64,000 nt of DNA from Planctomycetaceae bacterium (GTDB lineage Bacteria; Planctomycetota; Planctomycetia; Planctomycetales; Planctomycetaceae). The notes beneath the pieces are model-generated. The model saw nothing but the letters and a program-made list of their open reading frames with translations. It ran no database searches and had not been told where the DNA came from. The translations under genes were made by a program, and so were the position numbers. This document shows positions 3,178 to 51,525 of the stretch, one piece after another (position 1 is the first letter of the stretch; every line of letters starts with the position of its first letter). Location of the stretch: positions 51,352 to 115,351 of the forward strand of contig JAKFUG010000017.1 of the NCBI GenBank assembly GCA_021732785.1, in the 5' to 3' direction.

Positions 3178-3346
3178 TCCCTTGGGGAAGCACGCAAGAA
3201 AACTGCGGGAAGCCGGATCAATTCGAGACGGACACCGGGGAGCGACACGTCTCCACCAAGGCCACCATCAACGTTCATTCTAACCCAAAAGGCCGGGCGA
3301 ACGGCAAGAGGAAGCGCGCGCAATCCGTGAACGGCAGACTCTGTTT

Positions 3347-3441
3347 GAAGAGTCGGGGCGGGGGCCCCGGCCTATGGATGTAAAAATCAACCTGAAATCA
3401 TAGGTCGGGGCCCCTGCCCCGACGCCTTTGAATTCAAACGG
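3347..3441. repeat. Palindromic hairpin element, family 1 copy 1 (GTCGGGGCGGGGGCCCCGRCCTA stem, ~22 nt AT-rich loop)
   Basis: About 25-bp GC-rich inverted arms around an AT-rich loop. Near-identical copies at 13184-13280 and 16371-16462. Confidence 0.8.
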
Positions 3442-3496
3442 TCGCATCACCTGCGATCAGCATATCTATCCACACGCATTCGGCGGGAATCAGCCG

Positions 3497-4903
3497 TTAC
3501 TTTTCCGCGATGCCCGGCGCGGCCACTTTGTTTTTCTGCAGCCAATCATCCAGGGCTTTCACCTGCTCGACCGTCACCTGCTGACCCGAGAGAAGGCTGT
3601 TCGTAATGGGCAGCACTAACTGATAAACCGGTTCAAACGCAGGAGTGGTCTGGGCATTGTTGCGGAAACCGCCTTTCGCTCGTTTCGCGGCATCCATGTC
3701 GGACGCATCCAGCGCGTTAAACGCCAGGTAGAGGAACCAGAAGTTCGTTTTCCAGATGGGATTCTTCGGCTGCTGCTGGGCCGCTTTCGCCAGGTCACGA
3801 GCAAACAGGGCCACTTCCCCGACCACGGTCGGCACATTGACGGACGGATCAAACGGCACGCGTCCCAGACTGCGGGCGGCCATTGCGCGGACTTGCCAGT
3901 CGCGCGCTGGATCATTCATCACCATTCGCAGCGTATCGACGATAAACGGCTTGCGGTTCTGCAGATCGAGGGTGACATCCAGCAGGGAGAGCGCTTCCGC
4001 CAGCCGCAACTGATACCAGAAGAACTTTTTCCCGTCCTTCAACTCCGCCACGATGGCATTGGCAACTTCGTGCTTGACGGGGACGCTGGGAACGCCGTAG
4101 CGCAACAAACGCACAATGCTGCGTGCCGCGGCGATTTTCACCGCCGGCGGTTGCTCGGGATCGGCGAGCACCTTGGCGAGCAGTGGCAAACCGTCGGCAA
4201 AGGCTTCCAGCTTCAAATTCCGCTGCGTATCGGTCTCGGTGAGATCCAATTCGCCGACGAGTGTCACCGCCTGAATGCGGACATACAGATTCTTCTTCAA
4301 CAACGCTTCCGACTGCTTGACGATTTCCGCCAGAATAAAGCGGCGGAAATTTCGCACGTCGGCGGCGGGGGCGAGTTTGCCAGCTTGCTGCAGATCGCGG
4401 ATGGAAAGGTCTTCACGCTTCACGTGCAGGTTCTGCAAGTTGTCTTTTTCGCAGAGCTGGGCCAACCGATACTTGATCCCCTTCCGGATGATGTTCTTGT
4501 CTTCGTCCTTAAGATTGCCGGTGCTGCCGCGGATCGCGCTTTTGTAGCGGTTTTCGAACTTCTTCAGGTCGGCCAATTCCTCCGGAGTTACCAGCGGCTC
4601 GAAGTCGATCATGACATCGGGTCTATCTGGCGGAACTTTGTATCCCTTGGGCAAACCGGTGACGGGATCGAGATTCGGGTCAACCGGTTTCGTGGGCATC
4701 ACGGCCGGTTTCGGTTTCGCAGTTCCGCCCGGAGCGGGCTTGGTGACCGCTTTTCCCGCGGCGCCCTTTTTGGGATCGGGTTTCTTCGCCTGAGCGAAGA
4801 CCTCGCGCGCCGGGACCGTCAGCAGACTCAGCATGATGAGGCTGACTGTGAGGAAAGATCCCACAAAACGTCCATCAACCTGCGGCAATTCGGCTTGACG
4901 CAC
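3497..4903 (-). CDS. Secreted HEAT/ARM-repeat protein with Lys/Pro-rich N-terminal region
   Basis: 468 aa with an N-terminal hydrophobic signal or anchor. Repeated alpha-helical motifs resemble HEAT repeats (LLAKVLADPEQPPAVKIAAARSIVRLL). Confidence 0.45.
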   Translation of the reverse strand: MRQAELPQVDGRFVGSFLTVSLIMLSLLTVPAREVFAQAKKPDPKKGAAGKAVTKPAPGGTAKPKPAVMPTKPVDPNLDPVTGLPKGYKVPPDRPDVMIDFEPLVTPEELADLKKFENRYKSAIRGSTGNLKDEDKNIIRKGIKYRLAQLCEKDNLQNLHVKREDLSIRDLQQAGKLAPAADVRNFRRFILAEIVKQSEALLKKNLYVRIQAVTLVGELDLTETDTQRNLKLEAFADGLPLLAKVLADPEQPPAVKIAAARSIVRLLRYGVPSVPVKHEVANAIVAELKDGKKFFWYQLRLAEALSLLDVTLDLQNRKPFIVDTLRMVMNDPARDWQVRAMAARSLGRVPFDPSVNVPTVVGEVALFARDLAKAAQQQPKNPIWKTNFWFLYLAFNALDASDMDAAKRAKGGFRNNAQTTPAFEPVYQLVLPITNSLLSGQQVTVEQVKALDDWLQKNKVAAPGIAEK

Positions 4904-8728: not shown

Positions 8729-8886
8729 CCCTGATTTCCTGAAGATTCTCCATGGCATGGTAGACGGTGTGGGAGATCGCGACAACGCCTGTTTTCTGCG
8801 GACGTTGGTTCGCGGAGTGGTGGACCCGGTTGCGGTTGCCGGAACCGTCGGGCACGGCGATCGAAGTTTCATCCCGAAGGGATGTC

Positions 8887-8934
8887 AGCCATTAGCCGGT
8901 AGTTGAGCGCAGCGACACCACCGGTTAATGGCTC
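8887..8934. repeat. Hairpin element, family 4 (AGCCATTAGCCGGTGGTTGAGCGCAGCGACACCACCGG core)
   Basis: Stem-loop flanked by short CATCCCGAAGGGATG-type hairpins. Related copies at 47316-47352 and 47412-47450. Confidence 0.6.
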
Positions 8935-13067: not shown

Positions 13068-13183
13068 CGGAAAAACTCCTGCAGCGGTGCGAATGACCGT
13101 GGAAAAGGATCACCGCATCGTATCGCAGGCACATCGCTCGTTCCAGATGCGCAGCAGTGCCGAATTGATCCGGGGGCCACATT

Positions 13184-13280
13184 GAAGAGTCGGGGCGGGG
13201 GCCCCGACCTAAGATTTTAGACTGATTTTACATCCATAGGTCGGGGCCCCCGCCCCGACGTCTTTGGATTCAAACGGCCC
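13184..13280. repeat. Palindromic hairpin element, family 1 copy 2 (loop inverted relative to copy 1)
   Basis: Same stems and flanks as 3347-3441, but the loop sequence is its reverse complement. Confidence 0.8.
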
Positions 13281-16172: not shown

Positions 16173-16370
16173 CGAAGAGCGCTCCCGGACAAACTGACGT
16201 GATTCTCCATCCATGAGGAATCAACACCGCTTGCCATCATCCTTCATCGGGCGACAACCCGGCCGACATGCAGGCGATTTGGCAGTTTACGCAAACTTTT
16301 CCGATTTTGCTGAGATTGCGGACGACGATTCGATTCGTGATTCCCTTCCGTAGTGAGTCCGCTTCAACTT

Positions 16371-16462
16371 AAGAATGTCGGGGCGGGGGCCCCAACCTAT
16401 GATTTCCCATGGATTTTCATATATATAGGTCGGGGCCTCTGCCCCGACTCTTGAAACCGACC
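16371..16462. repeat. Palindromic hairpin element, family 1 copy 3
   Basis: GTCGGGGCGGGGGCCCCAACCTATG ... ATAGGTCGGGGCCTCTGCCCCGAC. Lies in the divergent region upstream of recQ. Confidence 0.8.
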
Positions 16463-16595
16463 CACGATCTTCACTTCCTCCCGAGAGGGCAGCCCCTGCC
16501 GGGTCTGACGATCCAACGCTGGGAACTCGCCGAAAAGTTGTGTACGGTGCCGTGAACGTTTTTCGCCCATCCCCCACGCAGGAAATTGCCCCACC

Positions 16596-18806: not shown

Positions 18807-18828
18807 TCCTTTTCGCGAAACAATCTCA

Positions 18829-18892
18829 ACAAGCCGGAAGCGCAAGCGCCCGGTTCTTTCGTAGTGACCGGGCGTTCGCGCTTCCGGCTTGT
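18829..18892. repeat. Hairpin element, family 2 (ACAAGCCSGAAGCGCRAGCGCCSGGT inverted arms)
   Basis: Sits immediately 3' of recQ. Related copies at 29530-29627, 45822-45908 and 49329-49415. Confidence 0.7.
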
Positions 18893-25013: not shown

Positions 25014-25240
25014 CACAGAGAACACAGAAGCACAAAAAAGTGGGCGAATGAGAGGAGGGGGAACCACGGAATACACGGAAAGGAGATAAAGAGTGAAGAT
25101 GGCGATTGCGGAGAGGGGGGACAAGCCTTTCCACTTCCGTTCCATTATTTTCCTTGCTCTCGTCTTCCTTCCGTGTCCTCCGTGTATTCCGTGGTTCTCT
25201 CTCTTCCCATCTTTTCTATGTTCTCTGTGTCTTCTGTGGA
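25014..25240. repeat. MITE-like element, family 3 (nested inverted repeats GGAACCACGGAATACACGGA..GACACGGAAG)
   Basis: Outer and inner inverted repeats with an 85-bp core. A second copy at 51205-51525 has a different core. Confidence 0.7.
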
Positions 25241-25360: not shown

Positions 25361-26152
25361 ATGAGCTGCGAAATGGACGTCATTGCCGGTCATTTGTACG
25401 ACTTCCCCAAGTATTACGACCTCATTTTCGGGTCGGACTGGAAAGCCGAGTACAAGTTTCTGCTCGAATGTTTCGACCTGTGGGCCCGTCGGCCGGTGAA
25501 GCGGATTTTTGAACCCGGCTGCGGCACCGGGCGGCTGATGATCAAGCTCGCGCAGGCGGGCTACGAAATCAGCGGGCTCGATCTGAATCCGAAAGCGGTC
25601 GACTACTGCAACAAGCGGCTCGCGAAGTACGGCTATCCCGAGTCCGCATTCATCGGCGACATGGCCGACTTTCATCTCAAGAAGAAGGTCGACGCCTGCT
25701 TCAACATGATCAATACGTTCCGGCATCTCCCCAGCGAAGCCGCCGCGTTGGCTCATTTTCGCTGCATCGCCGACTGTTTGAACAAGGGGGGCATCTACGT
25801 TCTCGGTCTGCACCTCACGCCGAAGACTACGCAGCAATGCACGGAAGAATGCTGGTCCGCGGCGAAGGGGAATCTGACGGTCAATTCGCGACTGTGGTCT
25901 ATCGGCATCGATCTGAAGAAGCGCGTCGAACGGATCGGCATGACGTACGACGTCCACACGCCGACGCAGCAGTTCCGCATCGAAGACGAAACCGCCTTCC
26001 GCACCTACTCCTCCGAACAGATGCAAGCCCTGTTCGACGCCACACCGGGACTGAAACTCGTGGAAACCTACGACTTCCGTTACCACATCGACTGGCCGAT
26101 TGAGATCGATGCGGATACGGAGGATATTGTGTATATCCTGCAGAAACAGTGA
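25361..26152 (+). CDS. Class I SAM-dependent methyltransferase
   Basis: SAM-binding motif I IFEPGCGTGRL, an acidic loop and post I/II motifs. Confidence 0.8.
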   Translation: MSCEMDVIAGHLYDFPKYYDLIFGSDWKAEYKFLLECFDLWARRPVKRIFEPGCGTGRLMIKLAQAGYEISGLDLNPKAVDYCNKRLAKYGYPESAFIGDMADFHLKKKVDACFNMINTFRHLPSEAAALAHFRCIADCLNKGGIYVLGLHLTPKTTQQCTEECWSAAKGNLTVNSRLWSIGIDLKKRVERIGMTYDVHTPTQQFRIEDETAFRTYSSEQMQALFDATPGLKLVETYDFRYHIDWPIEIDADTEDIVYILQKQ

Positions 26153-26164
26153 TTGGTTACAGAC

Positions 26165-26194
26165 GTAGGGTTTGCCGAGTCCACGAGGCGAACC
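26165..26194 (+). repeat. 30-bp element family 6 copy A (GTAGGGTTTGCCGAGTCCACGAGGCGAACC)
   Basis: One of four copies in alternating orientation. Confidence 0.85.
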
Positions 26195-26220
26195 TGTTGG
26201 AGTCAAAAAAGGACACTGGA

Positions 26221-26475
26221 ATGGTTACCGTCTCGGTAACGATAACTATTGCGGGGATTTGGCCAACCCCACAGGAATTGGCGGCTCGAAATGCAGTTAC
26301 AGATTCATTAACAGCATCGAACATCGGCACATTGGCCGGAGCAGGCGGCGGTCGCGGAGAAATGGATTTCTCATACCGCGTCTCAGACGAGGTGGCTGCT
26401 CGCAAGGCGATCGACTCGGCGATGCAAGCTCACATGGTTGGCACAGAGTACCGAATTCGAACCTCGATCGAATGA
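26221..26475 (+). CDS. Small hypothetical protein (85 aa) inside repeat-bounded lower-GC module
   Basis: ORF MVTVSVTITIAGIW... in a roughly 52% GC segment bracketed by inverted family-6 copies. No recognisable family. Confidence 0.25.
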   Translation: MVTVSVTITIAGIWPTPQELAARNAVTDSLTASNIGTLAGAGGGRGEMDFSYRVSDEVAARKAIDSAMQAHMVGTEYRIRTSIE

Positions 26476-26501
26476 TGTCAGATTATTGGATTCTTTGAAT
26501 C

Positions 26502-26531
26502 GGTTCGCCTCGCGGACTCGGCAAACCCTAC
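26502..26531 (-). repeat. 30-bp element family 6 copy B (reverse orientation)
   Basis: GGTTCGCCTCGCGGACTCGGCAAACCCTAC. One mismatch from the reverse complement of copy A. Confidence 0.85.
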
Positions 26532-26762
26532 GTGCTGCCGAAGCAGACCCTACGAATTCATTTCGCTAATCCGCGAAGTACCTGCGGAATATCGGAACAC
26601 TGCCAGCCTTGTTTGAAGTTGACGCCGTCGGTGCGAACCCAGGTCTTGCGGGGGAATTGCAGCGGTTTTCCGGTCGGTAACAAGCCCGTCGCTCTCCGGT
26701 CTGTGTGCCCTTGGCGACCCGGTGACGCAGGGCGAGGACCCGCACGCAACGGTGTAACCGAG

Positions 26763-26792
26763 TAGGGTTTGCCGAGTCCTCGTGGCGAACCG
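26763..26792 (+). repeat. 30-bp element family 6 copy C
   Basis: GTAGGGTTTGCCGAGTCCTCGTGGCGAACC. Confidence 0.85.
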
Positions 26793-26838
26793 TCTTCGCT
26801 GTGAGCAACACTCGCCCAGTGATTTTCTTGTCGTACGA

Positions 26839-27312
26839 TCACAGCGCATATTGATCGCGCAGTAAACCAACGCCGTTGAAGAGGACCACCAGCACGACCG
26901 GCGTGAGGACCAACGCCTGCCATTTCCAGTATTCCTGCCAGAGCCACGTGTGAAGAAATTCACCGCGCCGGATGTGCGTGTACCATTGGGCAAGCAGGAC
27001 GGTGATTGGTACGCCAATGACGTAACCGTTGAGAAGACCAGCGGCAGTTAACCAGGGGAAAATCGGCACACGCAGTCCGCCGAAGGGATCGGCAATCATC
27101 TGGTAACTGATAAAACCAGTGATGCCAACGGCGACCAACGCAAAGAAGACCGAGAGGAGTACGTCCCGTAGCCGAACACAAATTGGGGCGTCGACCCGAT
27201 AGCCACGGATGCCGCACTGCGGGCAGTACAGCATCTCCGGCAACATTGGGATATCGCACGATTCACACCTCAAACACCGATCATCGACTGTGAATTGCAG
27301 AAATCGAAACAC
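26839..27312 (-). CDS. Membrane protein with N-terminal zinc ribbon (CxxC...CxxC) and 4 TM helices
   Basis: 157 aa with CLRCESCD....CPQCG followed by hydrophobic helices. Lies inside the second family-6-bounded module. Confidence 0.5.
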   Translation of the reverse strand: MFRFLQFTVDDRCLRCESCDIPMLPEMLYCPQCGIRGYRVDAPICVRLRDVLLSVFFALVAVGITGFISYQMIADPFGGLRVPIFPWLTAAGLLNGYVIGVPITVLLAQWYTHIRRGEFLHTWLWQEYWKWQALVLTPVVLVVLFNGVGLLRDQYAL

Positions 27313-27465
27313 GGTTTTGCCTATGAAACAGGTGAATCAATTGGACGCATCATCCTCTCTACGTTTGTGGCTCGCAGGATGTGGGAAGCACAATCCGACA
27401 AAGATTCAGAGTCCGGTGATTCTACGAAATCGGTTACGACATCGACTTGCCGATCGATCCGGAAT

Positions 27466-27495
27466 GGTTCGCCTCGCAGACTCGGCAAACCCTAC
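27466..27495 (-). repeat. 30-bp element family 6 copy D (reverse orientation)
   Basis: GGTTCGCCTCGCAGACTCGGCAAACCCTAC. Lies inside the 3' end of the next gene. Confidence 0.85.
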
Positions 27496-28367
27496 GGAAC
27501 AACCGCGTTTTTCGAGGGGGCAATTGTTCGGCGCGTCCAGTGCCATTTCCGACACAGTGGGCAGCGTTCGTAGCGCAGATTCATGCCGAAATTGAATCCT
27601 GTGAACAATCCGCGGCCATACGGTTGATGGCAACTGGGGCAGATGGCGTGGCCGTAGAAAATGACGCCCAAGCGGCTGTTCCACCCGCCGAGCCCGATCA
27701 GCCACGCCAACGCTATCGTGAAACAACCGACAACCCACAGCGCCACGAGGAGCTGCGCGATGTTCTTGTCCGCTCCGAGCCAGCCGAGGTGGGCCATTCT
27801 GATCGGAAAGTTCGCACAGTAATGGGCGAGCGTAGCACTCGCAAAGCCCCATCGGAAGCCCGGACCGCAGCGCCATGCGGCCAAGACAATGGCCGTCATC
27901 CCGCTGTGAATTGCGCAGGTCATGAAGCGTTCCTGGATGAACCCGCCCAACTGATACCACGGTAGAGCCGCGATCTCGGGCTTGCGTTCCGCAATCAATC
28001 CGGCGACGGTGACCATTTCACCCAGCGCAAACCCCAATCCCAGTGCGAGCGCGACTTGCACAATGTTCTCCCGTGTGATTGATTTCCTCACGCGGGGCAA
28101 TAACAGCGGCCATAACTTTGCCGGCTCTTCAGTCAGCGGGGCGTACGCCGTCCGAAGCCAGCCCAAGGCTTCTCCGTCTCCCAGGAGCGTGACGAGCCAA
28201 CCGTCCAAGGGCATCCGGACGCCGTGAAACATCACCCAACACGTGGGCAGCGTCGCCATCAAGCACAGCGACATCCACCGCCGCTCCGTCACCGGCGTCG
28301 CGCACCACAACCACGTTCCGAACACGCCGAGGGAAACCAGCATCGCGACAAGCGTTGCGATGAGCAT
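27492..28367 (-). CDS. Polytopic membrane protein, possible PrsW/CPBP-like intramembrane protease with C-terminal zinc ribbon
   Basis: 291 aa. Candidate motifs are EExxK (TEEPAKL), an F....H region and HxxxN (HYCAN), plus a C-terminal CPSC...CPLC ribbon. The family call is tentative. Confidence 0.4.
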   Translation of the reverse strand: MLIATLVAMLVSLGVFGTWLWCATPVTERRWMSLCLMATLPTCWVMFHGVRMPLDGWLVTLLGDGEALGWLRTAYAPLTEEPAKLWPLLLPRVRKSITRENIVQVALALGLGFALGEMVTVAGLIAERKPEIAALPWYQLGGFIQERFMTCAIHSGMTAIVLAAWRCGPGFRWGFASATLAHYCANFPIRMAHLGWLGADKNIAQLLVALWVVGCFTIALAWLIGLGGWNSRLGVIFYGHAICPSCHQPYGRGLFTGFNFGMNLRYERCPLCRKWHWTRRTIAPSKNAVVP

Positions 28368-29516: not shown

Positions 29517-29529
29517 TGACCGCGATACA

Positions 29530-29627
29530 ACGAGCCCGAAGCGCCAGCGCCGGGTGTATGCGATATTTGTGATCTTCCTCGGGTCTCAAATGAGAAGGCA
29601 CCCGGCGCTCGCGCTTCGGGCTTGTAG
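29530..29627. repeat. Hairpin element, family 2 copy (between convergent nusB and cation antiporter)
   Basis: ACGAGCCCGAAGCGCCAGCGCCGGGT ... ACCCGGCGCTCGCGCTTCGGGCTTGT with a roughly 45-nt loop. Confidence 0.7.
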
Positions 29628-29666
29628 GGGTGCTGTTTTCATGGATCTGTCAACGGCATCGTAGAA

Positions 29667-30866: not shown

Positions 30867-33209
30867 TCAATTCACACTCGCCGTGTTGACGGGTTCATGC
30901 AACATCGCCGAGGCATCGCGCGTGAGCTGCTGCGTAAGGTCGTCGAACTCTGCGGGTTCTATCGGGCCGTTTGGTGTGAAGCCGGATTTTTCGGCGACGA
31001 GCAGGCCGAGTAATGTGCCGAGCAATCCTTGACCGCCGAGTGCATTCGTATCGCCACCGTTTCCGTTCGTCATGAACAATCGCTGTGGGACGAGCGGCTG
31101 CGTGGCGTGGGCGAGTTCCTTCGAGGCGAACGCCAGCGCGAACAACCGTGGGTCGCCGTAGGACGCGATTTTCTTCTGCAACACCGCGGCTTCCGCAAGG
31201 CCCTCTTGCAGAATCCGCAGCGCTTCCCCGCGGCCGGTGAGTTTGTTGCGCTGGCTTTCCGCTTCCGCAAGCAAACCGACTTGCTCCGCATGGCGGCGAG
31301 CACGGGCGACTTCGGCGTCGCCTTCACACTCGGCCATCTGAATCTGCAACCGCGTTGCCGCGAGATCGGTCTGCGCCTGCATGATCTTCCGATCGTTCTG
31401 CCGCTTGGCGATTGCCAGTTCCGCGTCGCCGTTGCTTTCGGCGATCTGCACTTTCAGCCGCGCGTTGGTCATCTCCGTCTGCATCGCCGCCTGGGCTTTC
31501 GCTTCGTTGAGGACCCTCAACTTGTCGTTCGCCGTGCATTGATGTTCGTAGGTTTCCACTTGTTCGATCGACAATTGCCGCAGACGGAGTTGTTCGAGCA
31601 GCGATTCAATCTTCCCGTCGGCTTCCGCGGTGTCGGGCTTGCCGATGAGAACATCGACGCATTCAATGTCGAACTCGTGGAACCGCCGACGTAATTCGGC
31701 CTGGGCTTCGCGCTGGATCACATCGCGGTCGTGCAACAGTTCGAGCATCGTCTTGCGGTGCGCGATGTCCCGGAAATATGCGGACAGCAGCGGATCGAGT
31801 GTTTGCGTGATCAACTTCTTCACGTCACCGAAGCGCTGGATCACGCTCGGCGCGCGTTGATAATCGATATGCACCACCACCGACAACGGCAGCGACGGTT
31901 CGTACGCATCGCGCGTGACGAGATCGATGGACCGCAGGTTTTCATCGTACCGATGCGTCTCCGTCCGGCCGGTGATCCAGTGCAACACGAAGTTCGTCGT
32001 CGGCACGAGGACAATGTTCCCCGCGTACACATTGAAGGCGTACTTGCCGGGTCCGAGTGGTTGCTTCCACACGCCCCGTTCCCCTTCGGCGACTTGCTCG
32101 CCGTGACGGAACGCATCGCCGGACAAATCGCGACCGGTGCGACCGTAGTAACTCACCACGACGCCGACATGACCGATAGGCACGACCGTCTTCGGGACCA
32201 TTTCCACCGAGGCAAACCAGCGGTTGATAAAGTACGTGCCGTCGGTGAGCGCCTGGTATTGCCGACCGCGACGACCACCAGCGTGCAGGAACGCTTCGGG
32301 GTCCTGAAAGTTATTGTGATCGGTCCCGAGAGCGGCGTCACCACCGACGGGCGGGGCGATCAGTTCCCCCGCCAGCAACGACGGGCCGTCCTGCACCGTG
32401 ACGATGCCGATGGTGTCATCGACTTCATCCCCGGTAGCAGCCGTCCCGGCACGACCGCCGACGACGACCGGTTGGAAACCGTTCACCACTTGCAATTCCG
32501 CTTGCCATTGCTTGACGGCGGTCCGTTCCTGCGGTTCCTGCACTTGTGACAGCGCAAACACATGCCCCGTCGTGATGACCACGAACAATGCCGGGTTCAC
32601 GGCATACACGCCTTCACGCAAGATGGCCCGTTGCCGCCCGCGTTGACCGCGTGGATGTTCCGGTCCCGGTTCGAGGAACAGCGCGGCGTCCTGGAAGTTG
32701 TTGCTCGGGACGATACGGCCGAGCGTTTGACTGGGCGACAACGATTCGCCATCGCGAGCATAGACGTAACCAATCTCACCCTGCGGAATGGTCACCAGCC
32801 GGGCTTTGTGAATGCGGTATTGCCAGCGGTAATAGCCGAAGTGCAGGCCGCCGCGCACCAGCCGGGCCTGATAACCGGCCTCGCCATTCAATGCGACGAT
32901 GCGTCCTTCGGCGAGGGAGCCGCGACCCGACCAGAGTTTCTCCACGACGCCCACGCGGTTATGGGGAATGTACCGCATGCAGAGCCACCAGAGAAACAGG
33001 AGTGCGGGGACGCCGATGGCGAGGAGCATCCACACGCTGGCGTGCAGGAACCAGTGGCCCACGTCGGTCAGGTTCAGTCCGTCAAACAGGATTTCAGTGA
33101 TTTTTTCCAAGATCGATCCGACGACGATTTTCATCGTCAGCCCTTCCTGCGAGCGCAACGCGGCTCGCGGCGCGGAGGCGGTCTCATTCATGGGGGATGG
33201 CCATCTCAC
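30867..33209 (-). CDS. Flotillin-like SPFH/band-7 protein with two SPFH-like domains and long coiled coil
   Basis: 780 aa with an N-terminal TM segment, SPFH motifs (RVGVVEKLWSG) and an extended E/A/Q/R-rich flotillin-type coiled coil. Confidence 0.7.
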   Translation of the reverse strand: MRWPSPMNETASAPRAALRSQEGLTMKIVVGSILEKITEILFDGLNLTDVGHWFLHASVWMLLAIGVPALLFLWWLCMRYIPHNRVGVVEKLWSGRGSLAEGRIVALNGEAGYQARLVRGGLHFGYYRWQYRIHKARLVTIPQGEIGYVYARDGESLSPSQTLGRIVPSNNFQDAALFLEPGPEHPRGQRGRQRAILREGVYAVNPALFVVITTGHVFALSQVQEPQERTAVKQWQAELQVVNGFQPVVVGGRAGTAATGDEVDDTIGIVTVQDGPSLLAGELIAPPVGGDAALGTDHNNFQDPEAFLHAGGRRGRQYQALTDGTYFINRWFASVEMVPKTVVPIGHVGVVVSYYGRTGRDLSGDAFRHGEQVAEGERGVWKQPLGPGKYAFNVYAGNIVLVPTTNFVLHWITGRTETHRYDENLRSIDLVTRDAYEPSLPLSVVVHIDYQRAPSVIQRFGDVKKLITQTLDPLLSAYFRDIAHRKTMLELLHDRDVIQREAQAELRRRFHEFDIECVDVLIGKPDTAEADGKIESLLEQLRLRQLSIEQVETYEHQCTANDKLRVLNEAKAQAAMQTEMTNARLKVQIAESNGDAELAIAKRQNDRKIMQAQTDLAATRLQIQMAECEGDAEVARARRHAEQVGLLAEAESQRNKLTGRGEALRILQEGLAEAAVLQKKIASYGDPRLFALAFASKELAHATQPLVPQRLFMTNGNGGDTNALGGQGLLGTLLGLLVAEKSGFTPNGPIEPAEFDDLTQQLTRDASAMLHEPVNTASVN

Positions 33210-33744
33210 TGTGCTTGCGCTTAGCGGACACTAGTCGCGTGCTAAGCGCAAGCAGTCATAAGACGAGAGAAATCAGGAGAGCGGTGGGCTCAATCCTTCA
33301 CGAAGAGTCTGCCCATTCAAAACGTGGTCGAGAGCACACGTCTCAACCGGCCTGCGAGGTTAGCTGACGGGCTAGAGCTTGAATGTGCTCCGGTGAACTC
33401 GGGCATCGCCGTTGTCCCACCTGCGCCCCATGCGGCTCGTCGTGAAGACGTTCCGCGTTGGTTCCCCCGCTCTCGTGTCCTGCCACGAGACTCGGCTGCA
33501 TCCCTGACATTATGGCAAGTTGCAACTTCAGACAGAAAAGATGCGAACGGCATGCCGGACAATGCAGATTGCCCGAAGATCTTGTTGCCGAATTACTTAT
33601 GGCTGGCATATTCCGGACGTTGCGATGTGTCGAGACAGTTGGTTTTCAGGAAATAGCTTCCGTGCACTGATTGCGCGGCTGTGGGCTGGTGATGTGGGGT
33701 TGAATTTATCCCATCCAATGGTATGATTTGGCTGTGTCGTCCCC

Positions 33745-45757: not shown

Positions 45758-45821
45758 TCCTCAAAAAGGTTTCACTTCCACGACGATCCTTCGTCGCAGG
45801 TGATTTCACAGATCATTTTTA

Positions 45822-45908
45822 ACAAGCCCGAAGCGCGAGCGCCGGGTTCTTCTTCGTTCGTTATTCGAGATCAATGCGAAAAACCCGGCGCTGGCGTTTC
45901 GGGCTTGT
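45822..45908. repeat. Hairpin element, family 2 copy (inside the sigma / anti-sigma / PDZ gene string)
   Basis: ACAAGCCCGAAGCGCGAGCGCCGGGT ... ACCCGGCGCTGGCGTTTCGGGCTTGT. Confidence 0.7.
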
Positions 45909-45915
45909 GAGACGC

Positions 45916-47162: not shown

Positions 47163-47315
47163 CTCACCACGGTAGTTGCCGCCGGAAGAAAAATCTTGCG
47201 AAGTGTTTCGTTTTGCCCAGAATTTATGGCAAGGTTTCGATTGCTGACAGGGTGACATGCGGGATGGGAACGACCGGGGTATGCGGTTTCTGGAAACGAC
47301 CCCGGTAGGGGTCTC

Positions 47316-47450
47316 AGCCATGAGCCGGTGGTTGAGCGCAGCGACACCACCGGACTTTGATTCGAAATGGAATTGCATCCTGAAGGGATGCGATCCTTCG
47401 CATCAACTTGCAACCGGTGGTGTCGCTACGCTCAACCACCGGCTAATGGC
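47316..47450. repeat. Composite hairpin element, family 4 (two inverted copies flanking a GCATCCTGAAGGGATGC hairpin)
   Basis: AGCCATGAGCCGGTGGTTGAGCGCAGCGACACCACCGG on one side and its inverted copy AACCGGTGGTGTCGCTACGCTCAACCACCGGCTAATGGCT on the other. Lies 150-300 bp upstream of the ECF sigma start. Confidence 0.6.
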
Positions 47451-47615
47451 TTTCATCCCTCCGGGATAAGTAAACGCCCGGGGACGATTTCGATAAGCCG
47501 TGTTAATATCAACACCGTTCATGGCGAAGATGATGTTGAACGAACGTCTGCACGTGAAGGAATCGGATCCTCATTAGCCGATCCGTGGGTGCTCGTCCCG
47601 AAAAGTGACGAGGAA

Positions 47616-48119: not shown

Positions 48120-48133
48120 GGGAAAGCTTTCAA

Positions 48134-48273
48134 GGAGTCGAGAGCGGAGAGTCGAGAGTCAAGAGCCAAAGGGAGAGCAAGACTCACGCACAACATATCA
48201 AAGTGACCACGACGTAATTCCGAACGAGCCGACTTATCTGGCTCTCGACTCTCGACTCTCCGCTCTCGACTCC
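48134..48273. repeat. MITE-like element, family 5 copy A (34-bp inverted arms built from GAGTCGAGA tandem sub-repeats)
   Basis: GGAGTCGAGAGCGGAGAGTCGAGAGTCAAGAGCC ... GGCTCTCGACTCTCGACTCTCCGCTCTCGACTCC with a 72-bp spacer. Confidence 0.75.
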
Positions 48274-49317
48274 CTACACCAGCGGCGTCTTGTGGGCTTC
48301 GCCGGGGATTTCGCGGACGTATTGCGGCACGGCATAGCCCGGCAGGCGCTTGCGTAGTTCGGTCATCAGAGTGCGACCGGTTTCCTCGGGGACTTCAAAA
48401 TGCGCGGTGCCGTTCACGCGGTCGAGCTGATGCAGATAGTACGGCATGACCCCGAGATCGATCAGCCGTTCGCACAGCTCCACCAGCGCGGTCACCGAAT
48501 CGTTCACGCCGCGTAAGAGCACCGTCTGGTTGAGCGTGGTGATCCCGGAGCGAACGAGTAGCCGGACGACATCGGCACAATCGCCGGTCAATTCCCGGGC
48601 ATGATTCGCATGGATCACCATCCACGGCGTGAGCCGCGATTCGGACAGCCGTTCGATGAACGACGGGGTGATCCGTTCAGGCAACACAATCGGCAACCGC
48701 GTGTGAATGCGCAGCCGACGCAAATGGGGAATGGTTTCCAGTTGTTCGATGAGCGCGAACAGCCGGGCATCGGTCAATGCGAGGGGATCACCGCCGCTGA
48801 GCAGCACTTCGTGAATGGAATCATCGGCGGCGAGCGCGTCGAGCGCCGGTTGCCAGTCGTCCAACTGTCGCGGCGATTCGGCATAGGGATAATGCCGGCG
48901 GAAGCAGTAACGGCAATGGACCGCGCACACGCCGGTGGTGATCAGCAACGCGCGGCCGTTGTACTTCTTCAACAGCCCCGGCGCGATTTGCGCGGCATCA
49001 TCCCCGACGGCATCCACGCTGTAACCCGGCGGCGATTCCGCTTCGACATCCAGCGGCAGCACCTGCCGCAGTAACGGATCGTGTGCGTCCTCCGGCGTCA
49101 TTCGTGCGAGGTAACTTTCCGGCACCAGTAACGGAAATAACTTCGCCCCGCGCTGAGCCGAGGGCAACCATTCGCGCGGCAAAGACAGGCGTTCCAGCAA
49201 CACCGCGGGATCACGCACGGCATTCGCCAGCGCCTGCTGCCAGGCGGCGCGATGGATCGGTGCGGAAAGGGGGGACAACATCGTCATGAGACGATTGTCC
49301 CCGGAAAGCATGCACAA
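48274..49317 (-). CDS. Lysine 2,3-aminomutase family radical SAM protein (EpmB/KamA-like)
   Basis: CxxxCxxC radical SAM motif CAVHCRYCFRR. GGDPL. Length about 347 aa fits EpmB. Confidence 0.7.
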   Translation of the reverse strand: MCMLSGDNRLMTMLSPLSAPIHRAAWQQALANAVRDPAVLLERLSLPREWLPSAQRGAKLFPLLVPESYLARMTPEDAHDPLLRQVLPLDVEAESPPGYSVDAVGDDAAQIAPGLLKKYNGRALLITTGVCAVHCRYCFRRHYPYAESPRQLDDWQPALDALAADDSIHEVLLSGGDPLALTDARLFALIEQLETIPHLRRLRIHTRLPIVLPERITPSFIERLSESRLTPWMVIHANHARELTGDCADVVRLLVRSGITTLNQTVLLRGVNDSVTALVELCERLIDLGVMPYYLHQLDRVNGTAHFEVPEETGRTLMTELRKRLPGYAVPQYVREIPGEAHKTPLV

Positions 49318-49328
49318 AAAAAGGCCCC

Positions 49329-49415
49329 TACAAGCCCGAAGCGCGAGCGCCGGGTTCTCTTTATCATGCCGTAAAGCAAAATTCGAAGAACCCGGCGCTC
49401 GCGCTGCGGGCTTGT
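49329..49415. repeat. Hairpin element, family 2 copy (divergent intergenic region)
   Basis: ACAAGCCCGAAGCGCGAGCGCCGGGT ... ACCCGGCGCTCGCGCTGCGGGCTTGT. Confidence 0.7.
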
Positions 49416-49563
49416 GAATGCGGTTTTCCCCCTACAAGGGCGAATTTTCTCGACTTTTTCTCTGCGATTCCGCTATGCTCGCCGAATCAACCACTTTCGA
49501 TGCGTTGCTGTCCGCAAAGTTCCGCATCGCTGGTCCCCGCACCTCTCTGAAAAGGCGGCAACG

Positions 49564-51204: not shown

Positions 51205-51525
51205 TTCATGTGGTGGAAATAAGAGAGGAACCACGGAATACACGGAGGACACGGAAGAATACCGGAATGAAAAGTCAGAGGGCGGAGCGACTGACACGCA
51301 TTCCAGGAGTCATCCGTGCGTTTTGAAACGTGCCGCTCATCACGCGGAGCGTGATGGCCACCATGGTAGCCATCACGCTCCGCGTGATGAGCGGATCCCA
51401 CACAACGCGCTGTTCATTGTTAGGATCAGTATGACACGATCTCCGCCGGACCGAGATTTCTTGATCCTGATCTTTTCCAATTCCGTGTCTTCCGTGGTTC
51501 GCTCCGTTTTTCTGTTCTGTGGTTG
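51205..51525. repeat. MITE-like element, family 3 copy 2 with nested 64-bp near-perfect palindrome (51333-51394)
   Basis: Terminal inverted repeats GGAACCACGGAATACACGGAGGACACGGAAG / ATTCCGTGTCTTCCGTGGTTC. Inner palindrome CGCTCATCACGCGGAGCGTGATGGC...GCCATCACGCTCCGCGTGATGAGCG. Confidence 0.7.

Follow-up and report, generated by a model that had tools for sequence, protein, structure and literature searches.

What are the four 30-bp sequences that stand in alternating orientation around two small genes on a contig of a Planctomycetaceae bacterium (NCBI GenBank assembly GCA_021732785.1, contig JAKFUG010000017.1)? The stretch analysed here, hereafter the window, comprises 64,000 nucleotides (nt) of this contig (positions 51,352 to 115,351 of the forward strand), and an earlier note on it, made from the letters alone, had read the four copies as miniature inverted-repeat transposable elements (MITEs), as cassettes with passenger genes or as repeated operator sites. 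According to our analysis, the 30-mers very probably belong to a family of GTAG-tagged repetitive extragenic palindromic (REP) sequences, that is, short, non-autonomous, hairpin-forming DNA. They are present here as four singlets in neighbouring intergenic gaps and represent a new sequence family, REP1 in what follows, of the known class of GTAG REPs and of REP doublets forming hairpins (REPINs).

The repeated unit

The copies were sought in the window with the 30-mer GTAGGGTTTGCCGAGTCCACGAGGCGAACC, allowing up to 3 mismatches, and 100 dinucleotide-preserving shuffles served as the null. Exactly four matches were retrieved, with 0 expected from the shuffles; thus, the four 30-bp copies in alternating orientation and with one or two mismatches, as first described, are confirmed. 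The starts assigned to copies A, B and D were correct, while that of copy C, given as 26763, is 26762. The copies, together with a short hairpin that had been overlooked, are the following (window positions, strand, feature):

26165-26194, + strand, REP copy A: 0 mismatches, loop TCCA
26502-26531, - strand, REP copy B: 1 mismatch, loop TCCG
26532-26553, - strand, short GTAG-tagged hairpin GTAGGGTCTGCTTCGGCAGCAC, composed as GTAGGGTCTGC-TTCG-GCAGCAC: adjoins copy B in the same orientation
26762-26791, + strand, REP copy C: 2 mismatches, loop TCCT, plus CGAG changed to CGTG beside the loop
27466-27495, - strand, REP copy D: 2 mismatches, loop TCTG

The consensus of the window 30-mer is GTAGGGTTTGCCGAG-NNNN-CGAGGCGAACC, and the variation from copy to copy is confined to the loop or, in copy C, to one base adjoining it. 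The short hairpin beside copy B is similar to a family of the form GTAGGGTCCGC-TGTG-CGGACC, which makes inverted doublets in DASRYX (loci L020 and L077), a metagenome-assembled genome (MAG). The distances first reported (367 bp from A to B, a 230-bp core between B and C, about 733 bp from C to D) hold on remeasurement. Copies included, A-B spans 367 bp, with an interior of 307 nt at 51.1% GC, and C-D spans 734 bp, with an interior of 674 nt at 53.4% GC; the core between B and C (230 nt) has 60.4% GC. The lower GC content of the two bracketed segments is therefore real, the entire 64,000-nt window having 59.9%.

The unit has the layout GTAG-G-[GTTTGCC]-GAG-NNNN-CGA-[GGCGAAC]-C. It begins with the unpaired tag GTAG (unpaired in the folds as well) and the next G, and continues into a stem GTTTGCC/GGCGAAC, which has a conserved T.G wobble and which the flanking G and C extend to 8 pairs; a tandem G.A/A.G mismatch, kept in all the family copies seen, and then a closing G-C pair lead to a variable loop of 4 nt (5-6 nt in copies from some genomes). 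Because of the T.G wobble, the hairpin is stronger on the GTAG strand than on its complement. Over 57 copies the conserved block is exactly 30 nt long, and the flanks are random save for a weak C at -1 and A at +1; around these 57 copies we found no target-site duplications, for which the earlier note had proposed to look outside the window copies, and no conserved internal sequence either. The GTAG start is present in 4 of 4 window copies and in 56 of the 57 family copies, the degenerate copy of locus L035 starting with GTGG.

An imperfect palindrome of 20-40 bp (here 30 nt) that forms a stem-loop and an unpaired terminal GTAG are features of the REP class. The earlier statement that no known element could be recognised does not hold, since GTAG plus an imperfect palindrome is the defining REP signature (Di Nocera, De Gregorio and Rocco 2013, PMC3733652). 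The signature has to be taken with the sequence of the family: a loose scan of the window for any GTAG followed by a hairpin gave 23 sites compared to about 49 in mononucleotide shuffles, and this generic criterion is too loose because such sites are not enriched. The search of Rfam gave no family at the four repeat sites. Two short-read (Logan) contigs of the source organism stop at 27467 and 27471, at the inner edge of copy D, which is the expected outcome of a de Bruijn assembly at multi-copy 30-mers and lends indirect support to further copies in the source genome.

The family in other genomes and its transposase

A scan with the pattern GTAGGGTTYGCC-N8-12-GGCRAACC, carried out on one genome per species, retrieved at least 89 loci; true family membership was assigned to sequences that also match GAG...CGAG, which the pattern left unspecified. 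The repeat is not unique to this locus, the case in which the first reading as a mobile element would have fallen: dispersed copies were found in several Planctomycetaceae MAGs, the unit being spread over many contigs of at least five of them (DASRYX01, CAZDGB01, CAYMAO01, JBGSUN01 and CAZAGI01). In two MAGs, the sampled 59-94 kb hold at least 15-19 copies, versus 4 in the 64 kb of the source genome. Among the matches listed, the unit also occurs in MAGs labelled as Pseudomonadota (JAWOIT01 and JBDLJH01). The REP of loci L003-L070 (JAWOIT01) and L037 (JBDLJH01) is identical to the copies of Planctomycetaceae MAGs at all 26 non-loop positions, which implies either a horizontal transfer of REP and transposase or a binning or labelling problem; if it is not such an artefact, an identical 30-mer in two phyla conflicts with the usual, strictly vertical inheritance of REPINs and their transposases.

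In the Planctomycetaceae loci, among the matches listed, 17 tight pairs have spacers of 14-32 nt and all of them are in the (+,-) order, with GTAG outward; no tight (-,+) pair is present among these loci, and in two further pairs the spacers measure 95 and 103 nt. The commonest doublet type among the listed loci joins a TCCG loop with a TCTT loop (six doublets), and loci L048 and L051 resemble duplicates of one entire doublet, spacer included. This arrangement is the REPIN layout. The family thus forms REPINs in relatives, but the four window copies are not REPINs: they are spaced by 307, 230 and 674 nt, and the DNA that separates them shows no complementarity. A further arrangement was found in JAWOIT01 (locus L025), where the unit alternates with a second, inverted GTAG REP of the form GTAGGGTGCCGCC...GGCGCACC, with fixed linkers of 9 and 25 nt and up to 6 times in a row. 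Arrays of this kind, resembling bacterial interspersed mosaic elements (BIMEs), are present in loci L025, L055 and L159, whereas genes and unique DNA, rather than linkers, lie between the window copies.

The position of the copies relative to genes was scored with a crude gene call filtered by GC content at third codon positions (GC3), which replaced a longest-open-frame test confounded by the long antisense frames of high-GC DNA. According to this call, 83% of the sequence is coding, and 37 of 56 copies fall in the non-coding 17%. In 21 out of 58 cases, the GTAG lies no more than 30 nt from the end of a gene of at least 100 aa encoded on the REP strand, the opposite arrangement being found once in 58; in three of those 21 (loci L029 and L032 and copy D of the window), the TAG of the tag is used as the stop codon.

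The unit is also found next to genes for REP-associated tyrosine transposases (RAYTs). In locus L037, it ends 37 nt before the ATG of a 174-aa open reading frame (ORF) with HUH and C-terminal Tyr motifs, whose product scores 176.6 bits on the NCBIfam model NF047646, "REP-associated tyrosine transposase" (cut-off 80), matches the Pfam family Y1_Tnp and has homologs that include NCBI entries of the same name. Locus L159 encodes an independent RAYT homolog, with 72% identity to the L037 protein; two units lie upstream of it, the nearer one stopping 36 nt short of the ATG, where the AACC-ATAAT junction is that of L037, an inverted sister REP comes right after its stop codon, and both REPs alternate further out. 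This arrangement is a REPtron, and the RAYT of L037 also has the sister REP on its 3' side; BIME-like arrays that include a sister REP are found at both loci.

Sister families hold GTAGG followed by a hairpin, with different stem bases (GTGGGCC/GTCCCAC in L150, GTGCGT/ACGCAC in L148 and CTGGGTTA/TAACCCAG in L149). Locus L150 carries at 4662-4754 a sister REPIN, GTAGGGTGGGCCGAG-TGGAG-CGAGTCCCACC, present twice in inverted orientation 31 nt apart and with compensatory stem changes; GTAGG and the internal loop GAG...CGAG are retained, and this REPIN is located within a called ORF of 682 aa that has no Pfam match. Many RAYTs of the Planctomycetaceae clade are shortened to 73-159 aa (L090 2-265, L091 10001-10288 and L094 10001-10222), including a "partial" one in Symmachiella dynata, and, as they retain a REP of the GTAGGGTGCG type on the 3' side, they look like decaying REPtrons.

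On this basis, we can depict a probable origin of the window copies. REPs are generated and spread in single-stranded DNA by the RAYT, a HUH/Y1 enzyme whose single-copy gene lies elsewhere in the genome. In the window, one unit has landed or been retained in each gap between four consecutive genes, with two in the convergent gap; a RAYT of this clade in the source genome would have made the four copies. In Escherichia coli, the RAYT TnpA-REP binds the folded single-stranded REP and cleaves at or near GTAG, and the cleavage requires the tag plus loop-edge mismatches (PMC3479197; summarised in PMC3733652). By analogy with this enzyme, what the RAYT recognises in the present family is most likely the conserved GTAG together with the T.G wobble and the internal loop G.A/A.G, and the variable loop would be free to drift. 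We searched the window, core between B and C included, with phmmer and tblastn and found no RAYT/Y1 gene or remnant, which is expected since a RAYT acts in trans. The earlier observation that no transposase is present is therefore right for RAYT/Y1 enzymes, the families searched for across the whole window.

Several points weigh against this reading of the four copies as dispersed REP singlets. The folding energies of the single hairpins as DNA are unremarkable compared to shuffles (z = -0.4 to -1.4); the source genome is seen as a 64-kb window only, with four copies, all of them within 1.33 kb, and no RAYT; their spacings are unlike those of the doublets in relatives, where the partners are about 20 nt apart; and both enclosed genes have a lower GC3 than their neighbours, which a plain picture of independent singlets does not explain. 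The main gap in the argument concerns the enzyme. The unit stands directly beside a RAYT only in L037, from a MAG labelled as Pseudomonadota, and in L159, an unlabelled metagenome contig, and no Planctomycetaceae RAYT flanked by the exact REP1 unit was found (the L075 gene is incomplete at the end of its locus, and its homologs are mostly truncated). The RAYT genes of Planctomycetaceae-type contigs bear sister REPs instead, all with GTAG outward: GTAGGGTGCGTC...GACGCACC in L075, L090 and L094, GTAGGGTGCGTGCAGCGCCAGCGAAACGCACC on both sides of the gene in L148, and another GTAGG-hairpin in L149.

Genes around and between the copies

The four consecutive genes whose gaps hold the units are the following (window positions, strand, feature):

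25361-26152, + strand: S-adenosylmethionine (SAM)-dependent methyltransferase gene, 263 aa, the host gene upstream of copy A
26221-26475, + strand: gene for an 84-aa protein (85-aa ORF), enclosed by copies A and B; it neighbours the element and does not belong to it
26839-27312, - strand: gene for a 157-aa protein, enclosed by copies C and D; it, too, neighbours the element and does not belong to it
27492-28367, - strand: gene for a conserved 291-aa membrane protein, its stop codon coming from copy D

Each gap holds a unit and the convergent one holds two. All four copies are extragenic, copy D supplying only the stop codon of the 291-aa gene, which is the TAG of its GTAG (27494-27492). Copies A and D are in the sense orientation, A beginning 12 nt past the stop codon of the methyltransferase gene, whose transcript would carry a G.U-containing hairpin. 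Copies B and C are antisense to their genes; 26 nt separate B from the stop codon of the 85-aa gene, and 47 nt separate C from the 3' end of the 157-aa gene. The surrounding genes are ordinary chromosomal ones (RecQ, an ABC ATPase, DUF1501, a BNR protein, NusB, a Na/Ca exchanger and an SPFH protein).

This disposition bears on the idea of repeated operator sites, according to which a DNA-binding regulator would co-regulate the small genes. A palindromic sequence repeated around neighbouring genes is what such a regulator would call for; however, the copies lie at gene 3' ends and stop codons and not at promoters, the palindrome is strand-asymmetric (T.G wobble, unpaired GTAG) with a variable centre, and REP1 is found next to hundreds of unrelated genes in several genomes, in tight doublets between convergent genes and at the flanks of RAYT genes. 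We regard operators as hardly conceivable here.

The same positions raise the possibility that the units are immobile RNA elements selected by the host, either stabilisers of 3' ends or terminators. The GTAG end faces a same-strand stop codon 21 times versus once, and the RNA folds of copies A and D are solid hairpins in sense transcripts, whereas copies B and C, being antisense to their genes, fold poorly as RNA. Moreover, the hairpin is no intrinsic terminator, as it lacks a T-run behind it; a terminator was called at none of the copies (0/4), and the bases downstream of AACC are random. The presence of near-identical 30-mers at many loci and of a REP-flanked RAYT points to copying and not to convergent selection, so that a purely RNA-level origin appears very improbable. 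A secondary role of this kind is compatible with mobile REPs. In E. coli, REPs have a stabilising effect on the mRNA upstream of them; those located no more than about 15 nt from a stop codon reportedly lower translation via ribosome stalling. Judging from position and fold, it is plausible that the transcripts carry copies A and D as stable RNA hairpins at the 3' end, with protection of this end of the mRNA or a damping of translation termination as possible effects.

The two enclosed genes are the reason why cassettes had been considered. The 85-aa ORF had been taken for an orphan, but 74 representative homolog clusters were found at E ≤ 1e-3, and 25 at E ≤ 1e-10, with full-length alignment. 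The members of the family are about 84 aa long and share the motif WP..EL.ARNAV...GAGGG.G.MDFSY, with invariant Arg23 and Gly36. The model of the protein has a ferredoxin-like fold (pLDDT 93), for which a fold search gives generic ferredoxin-like neighbours only; the family has no match in Pfam, NCBIfam or PADLOC, and the profile search suggested earlier, run against PDB sequences, was empty. The homologs are often found amid small accessory genes (Glyoxalase, TfoX_N, DUF413 and DUF4261). The 157-aa protein has an N-terminal zinc-ribbon-like CxxC...CxxC and is otherwise hydrophobic, with a sub-threshold similarity to Zn_ribbon_15 (E = 0.008); neither it nor the 291-aa protein matches Pfam, NCBIfam or PADLOC above cut-off. 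The methyltransferase has a PADLOC match to "mad2" (mads_2, E = 4.7e-16) that covers the SAM-binding domain only and is probably a generic methyltransferase similarity, not a defence system.

The pairs A(+)..B(-) and C(+)..D(-) could then each form a mobile unit, with a passenger gene between two GTAG-outward REPs and a RAYT that moves the whole, as in a REPtron, where the RAYT gene itself lies between two GTAG-outward REPs. Both pairs share this polarity with the REPIN doublets and with the REPs around RAYTs (L148), the gaps from the 85-aa gene to copies A and B are symmetric (26 nt each), the enclosed genes are lower in GC and in GC3 (0.53 for the 85-aa ORF and 0.65 for the 157-aa gene versus 0.76-0.78 for the outer flanking genes), and the homologs of the 85-aa gene occur in varied, accessory-gene-like contexts. 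If this were true, A-orf85-B and C-zn157-D would be RAYT-mobilisable mini-transposons with a passenger gene in place of the RAYT, and REP cargo would represent a way of moving genes that has not been described before, with a "domesticated" transposase as the driving enzyme. Yet, homologs of the 85-aa gene with 63-70% identity, in three contexts (L150; L151 and L152; L153-L157), have no REP1, GTAG hairpin or inverted repeat of at least 10 nt alongside, which implies that the bracket does not travel with the gene. No second gene-sized (+,-) pair exists among about 36 listed Planctomycetaceae loci, and elsewhere the unit does not stand around genes: it is either single or part of a tight doublet, whose spacer measures about 20 nt. 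Besides, the inner flanks of A-B and C-D share no sequence, the order +,-,+,- would arise by chance about once in 8 cases, and for copies A and D an attachment of REPs to the stop codons of the outer genes is an equally good explanation. These data make REP-bounded cassettes distinctly improbable. The relatives of the 291-aa gene in 49 metagenome loci (up to 58% identity) have no conserved synteny and no REP1; lacking a shared synteny, they are uninformative on empty and filled sites.

In a related scenario, A-B and C-D were once tight doublets, later parted by inserted DNA with a small gene. The polarity of both pairs fits, the C-D loops TCCT/TCTG resemble the common heterodimer type TCC-/TCT-, and the lower GC3 would be that of the inserted genes. 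On the other hand, two independent whole-gene insertions into targets of about 20 nt, side by side, would be required; no insertion scars, insertion sequence remnants or duplicated spacer halves were seen; and, absent an empty site, split REPINs have the same appearance as independent singlets. We consider this origin unlikely, if somewhat less so than the cassettes, and the four copies are best described as REP singlets next to ordinary genes.

As for MITEs and cassettes in the sense of the earlier note, what remains is a repeat of the mobile-element type that is not due to chance; MITE ends and cassette boundaries do not, given the 30-nt unit, its random flanks and the lack of duplications. 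In a MITE, terminal inverted repeats would enclose a unit of defined length, with target-site duplications outside, and the 57 copies with random flanks show neither. The attC sites of integrons were rejected because the copies alternate in orientation and the neighbouring genes are ordinary chromosomal ones; no integrase was found among the nearby genes put through Pfam, to which the search for integrases was restricted. Clustered regularly interspaced short palindromic repeats (CRISPR) were rejected, like attC and the operators, on account of orientation, spacing and position.

Other repeats of the window and known systems

The source genome is unusually rich in short repeat families. The intergenic family ACAAGCCCGAAGCGCGAGCGCCGGGTTCT is present at 18824-18857, 29525-29649, 45817-45910 and 49325-49418; its copies mostly have an inverted partner 25-42 nt off and are thus similar to REPIN doublets, with no consistent GTAG tag, and a Logan contig of the source organism has its edge at 29629, inside the copy at 29600-29639. 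A third family, of about 100 nt (3340-3446, 13171-13277 and 16354-16466), consists of inverted GTCGGGGCGGGGGCCCCGACCTA(T) hairpins around an AT-rich spacer. Further repeats are an intergenic one of 52-56 nt, CCGGTGGTGTCGCTGCGCTCAACCACCGG..., at 8871-8926, 47302-47353 and 47412-47467, a GAGTCGAGAG-rich intergenic one at 1958-2006 and 48132-48278, and GAACCACGGAATACACGGAGGACACGGAAG at 25048-25210, just upstream of the methyltransferase gene, and at 51228-51257. The window also contains a c-di-AMP riboswitch at 33335-33507 on the - strand (Rfam RF00379; 55.7 bits compared to a gathering score of 38), which precedes a gene for a 780-aa protein with an SPFH/Band-7 domain (30867-33209, - strand).

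The REP class itself is already known, and the finding is otherwise ordinary. Its interest lies in a well-defined REP/REPIN family, GTAGGGTTTGCCGAG-N4-CGAGGCGAACC, added to the Planctomycetaceae, where REPs are little described, and tied to a specific RAYT clade. It also has a value for annotation, since the units account for assembly breaks, for spurious ORFs due to read-through and for stop codons supplied by the repeat.

The closest known counterparts are the GTAG REPs surveyed by Di Nocera, De Gregorio and Rocco 2013 (PMC3733652), who described them downstream of ORFs, in dimers of opposite orientation, with the TAG of the tag as a stop codon, with DNA inserted between dimer partners, in REPtrons and also in Planctomycetes, Rhodopirellula baltica having the families GTAG-20 and GTAG-21. 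The present family shares with them the unpaired tag, the imperfect palindrome of 20-40 bp, the extragenic position downstream of ORFs, the opposite dimers, the TAG as a stop codon, the association with RAYTs in REPtrons and the host phylum. It differs in the spacing of the window copies, which are hundreds of nt apart, and its sequence is different from those of GTAG-20 and GTAG-21, as judged from the peptides encoded by their intragenic copies; the window family has the conserved tandem G.A/A.G internal loop and the T.G wobble.

Compared to the REPIN-RAYT systems of Pseudomonas and Enterobacteria (Bertels and Rainey 2011, PMC3116915; PMC3337134), the related MAGs likewise have inverted doublets of strict polarity whose partners are a short distance apart, entire doublets seemingly duplicated with their spacer (L048 and L051) and a RAYT that is not near most copies, whereas spacers of about 20 nt are shorter than those typical of Pseudomonas REPINs and the window itself has no tight doublet. 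With the MITEs, the units share being short, non-autonomous, multi-copy and intergenic, but they are single 30-nt hairpins whose partner enzyme is of the Y1 and not of the DDE transposase type. Finally, the REPs of E. coli, their BIMEs and TnpA-REP (PMC3479197) differ in sequence and in host phylum, and the BIME-like arrays are seen in MAGs labelled as Pseudomonadota and not in the window, the present family being known from sequence alone; the two systems are alike in the GTAG tag, in a stem with a conserved mismatch, in a Y1/HUH enzyme flanked by REPs and in the alternation of two REP variants with fixed linkers (L025 and L159).

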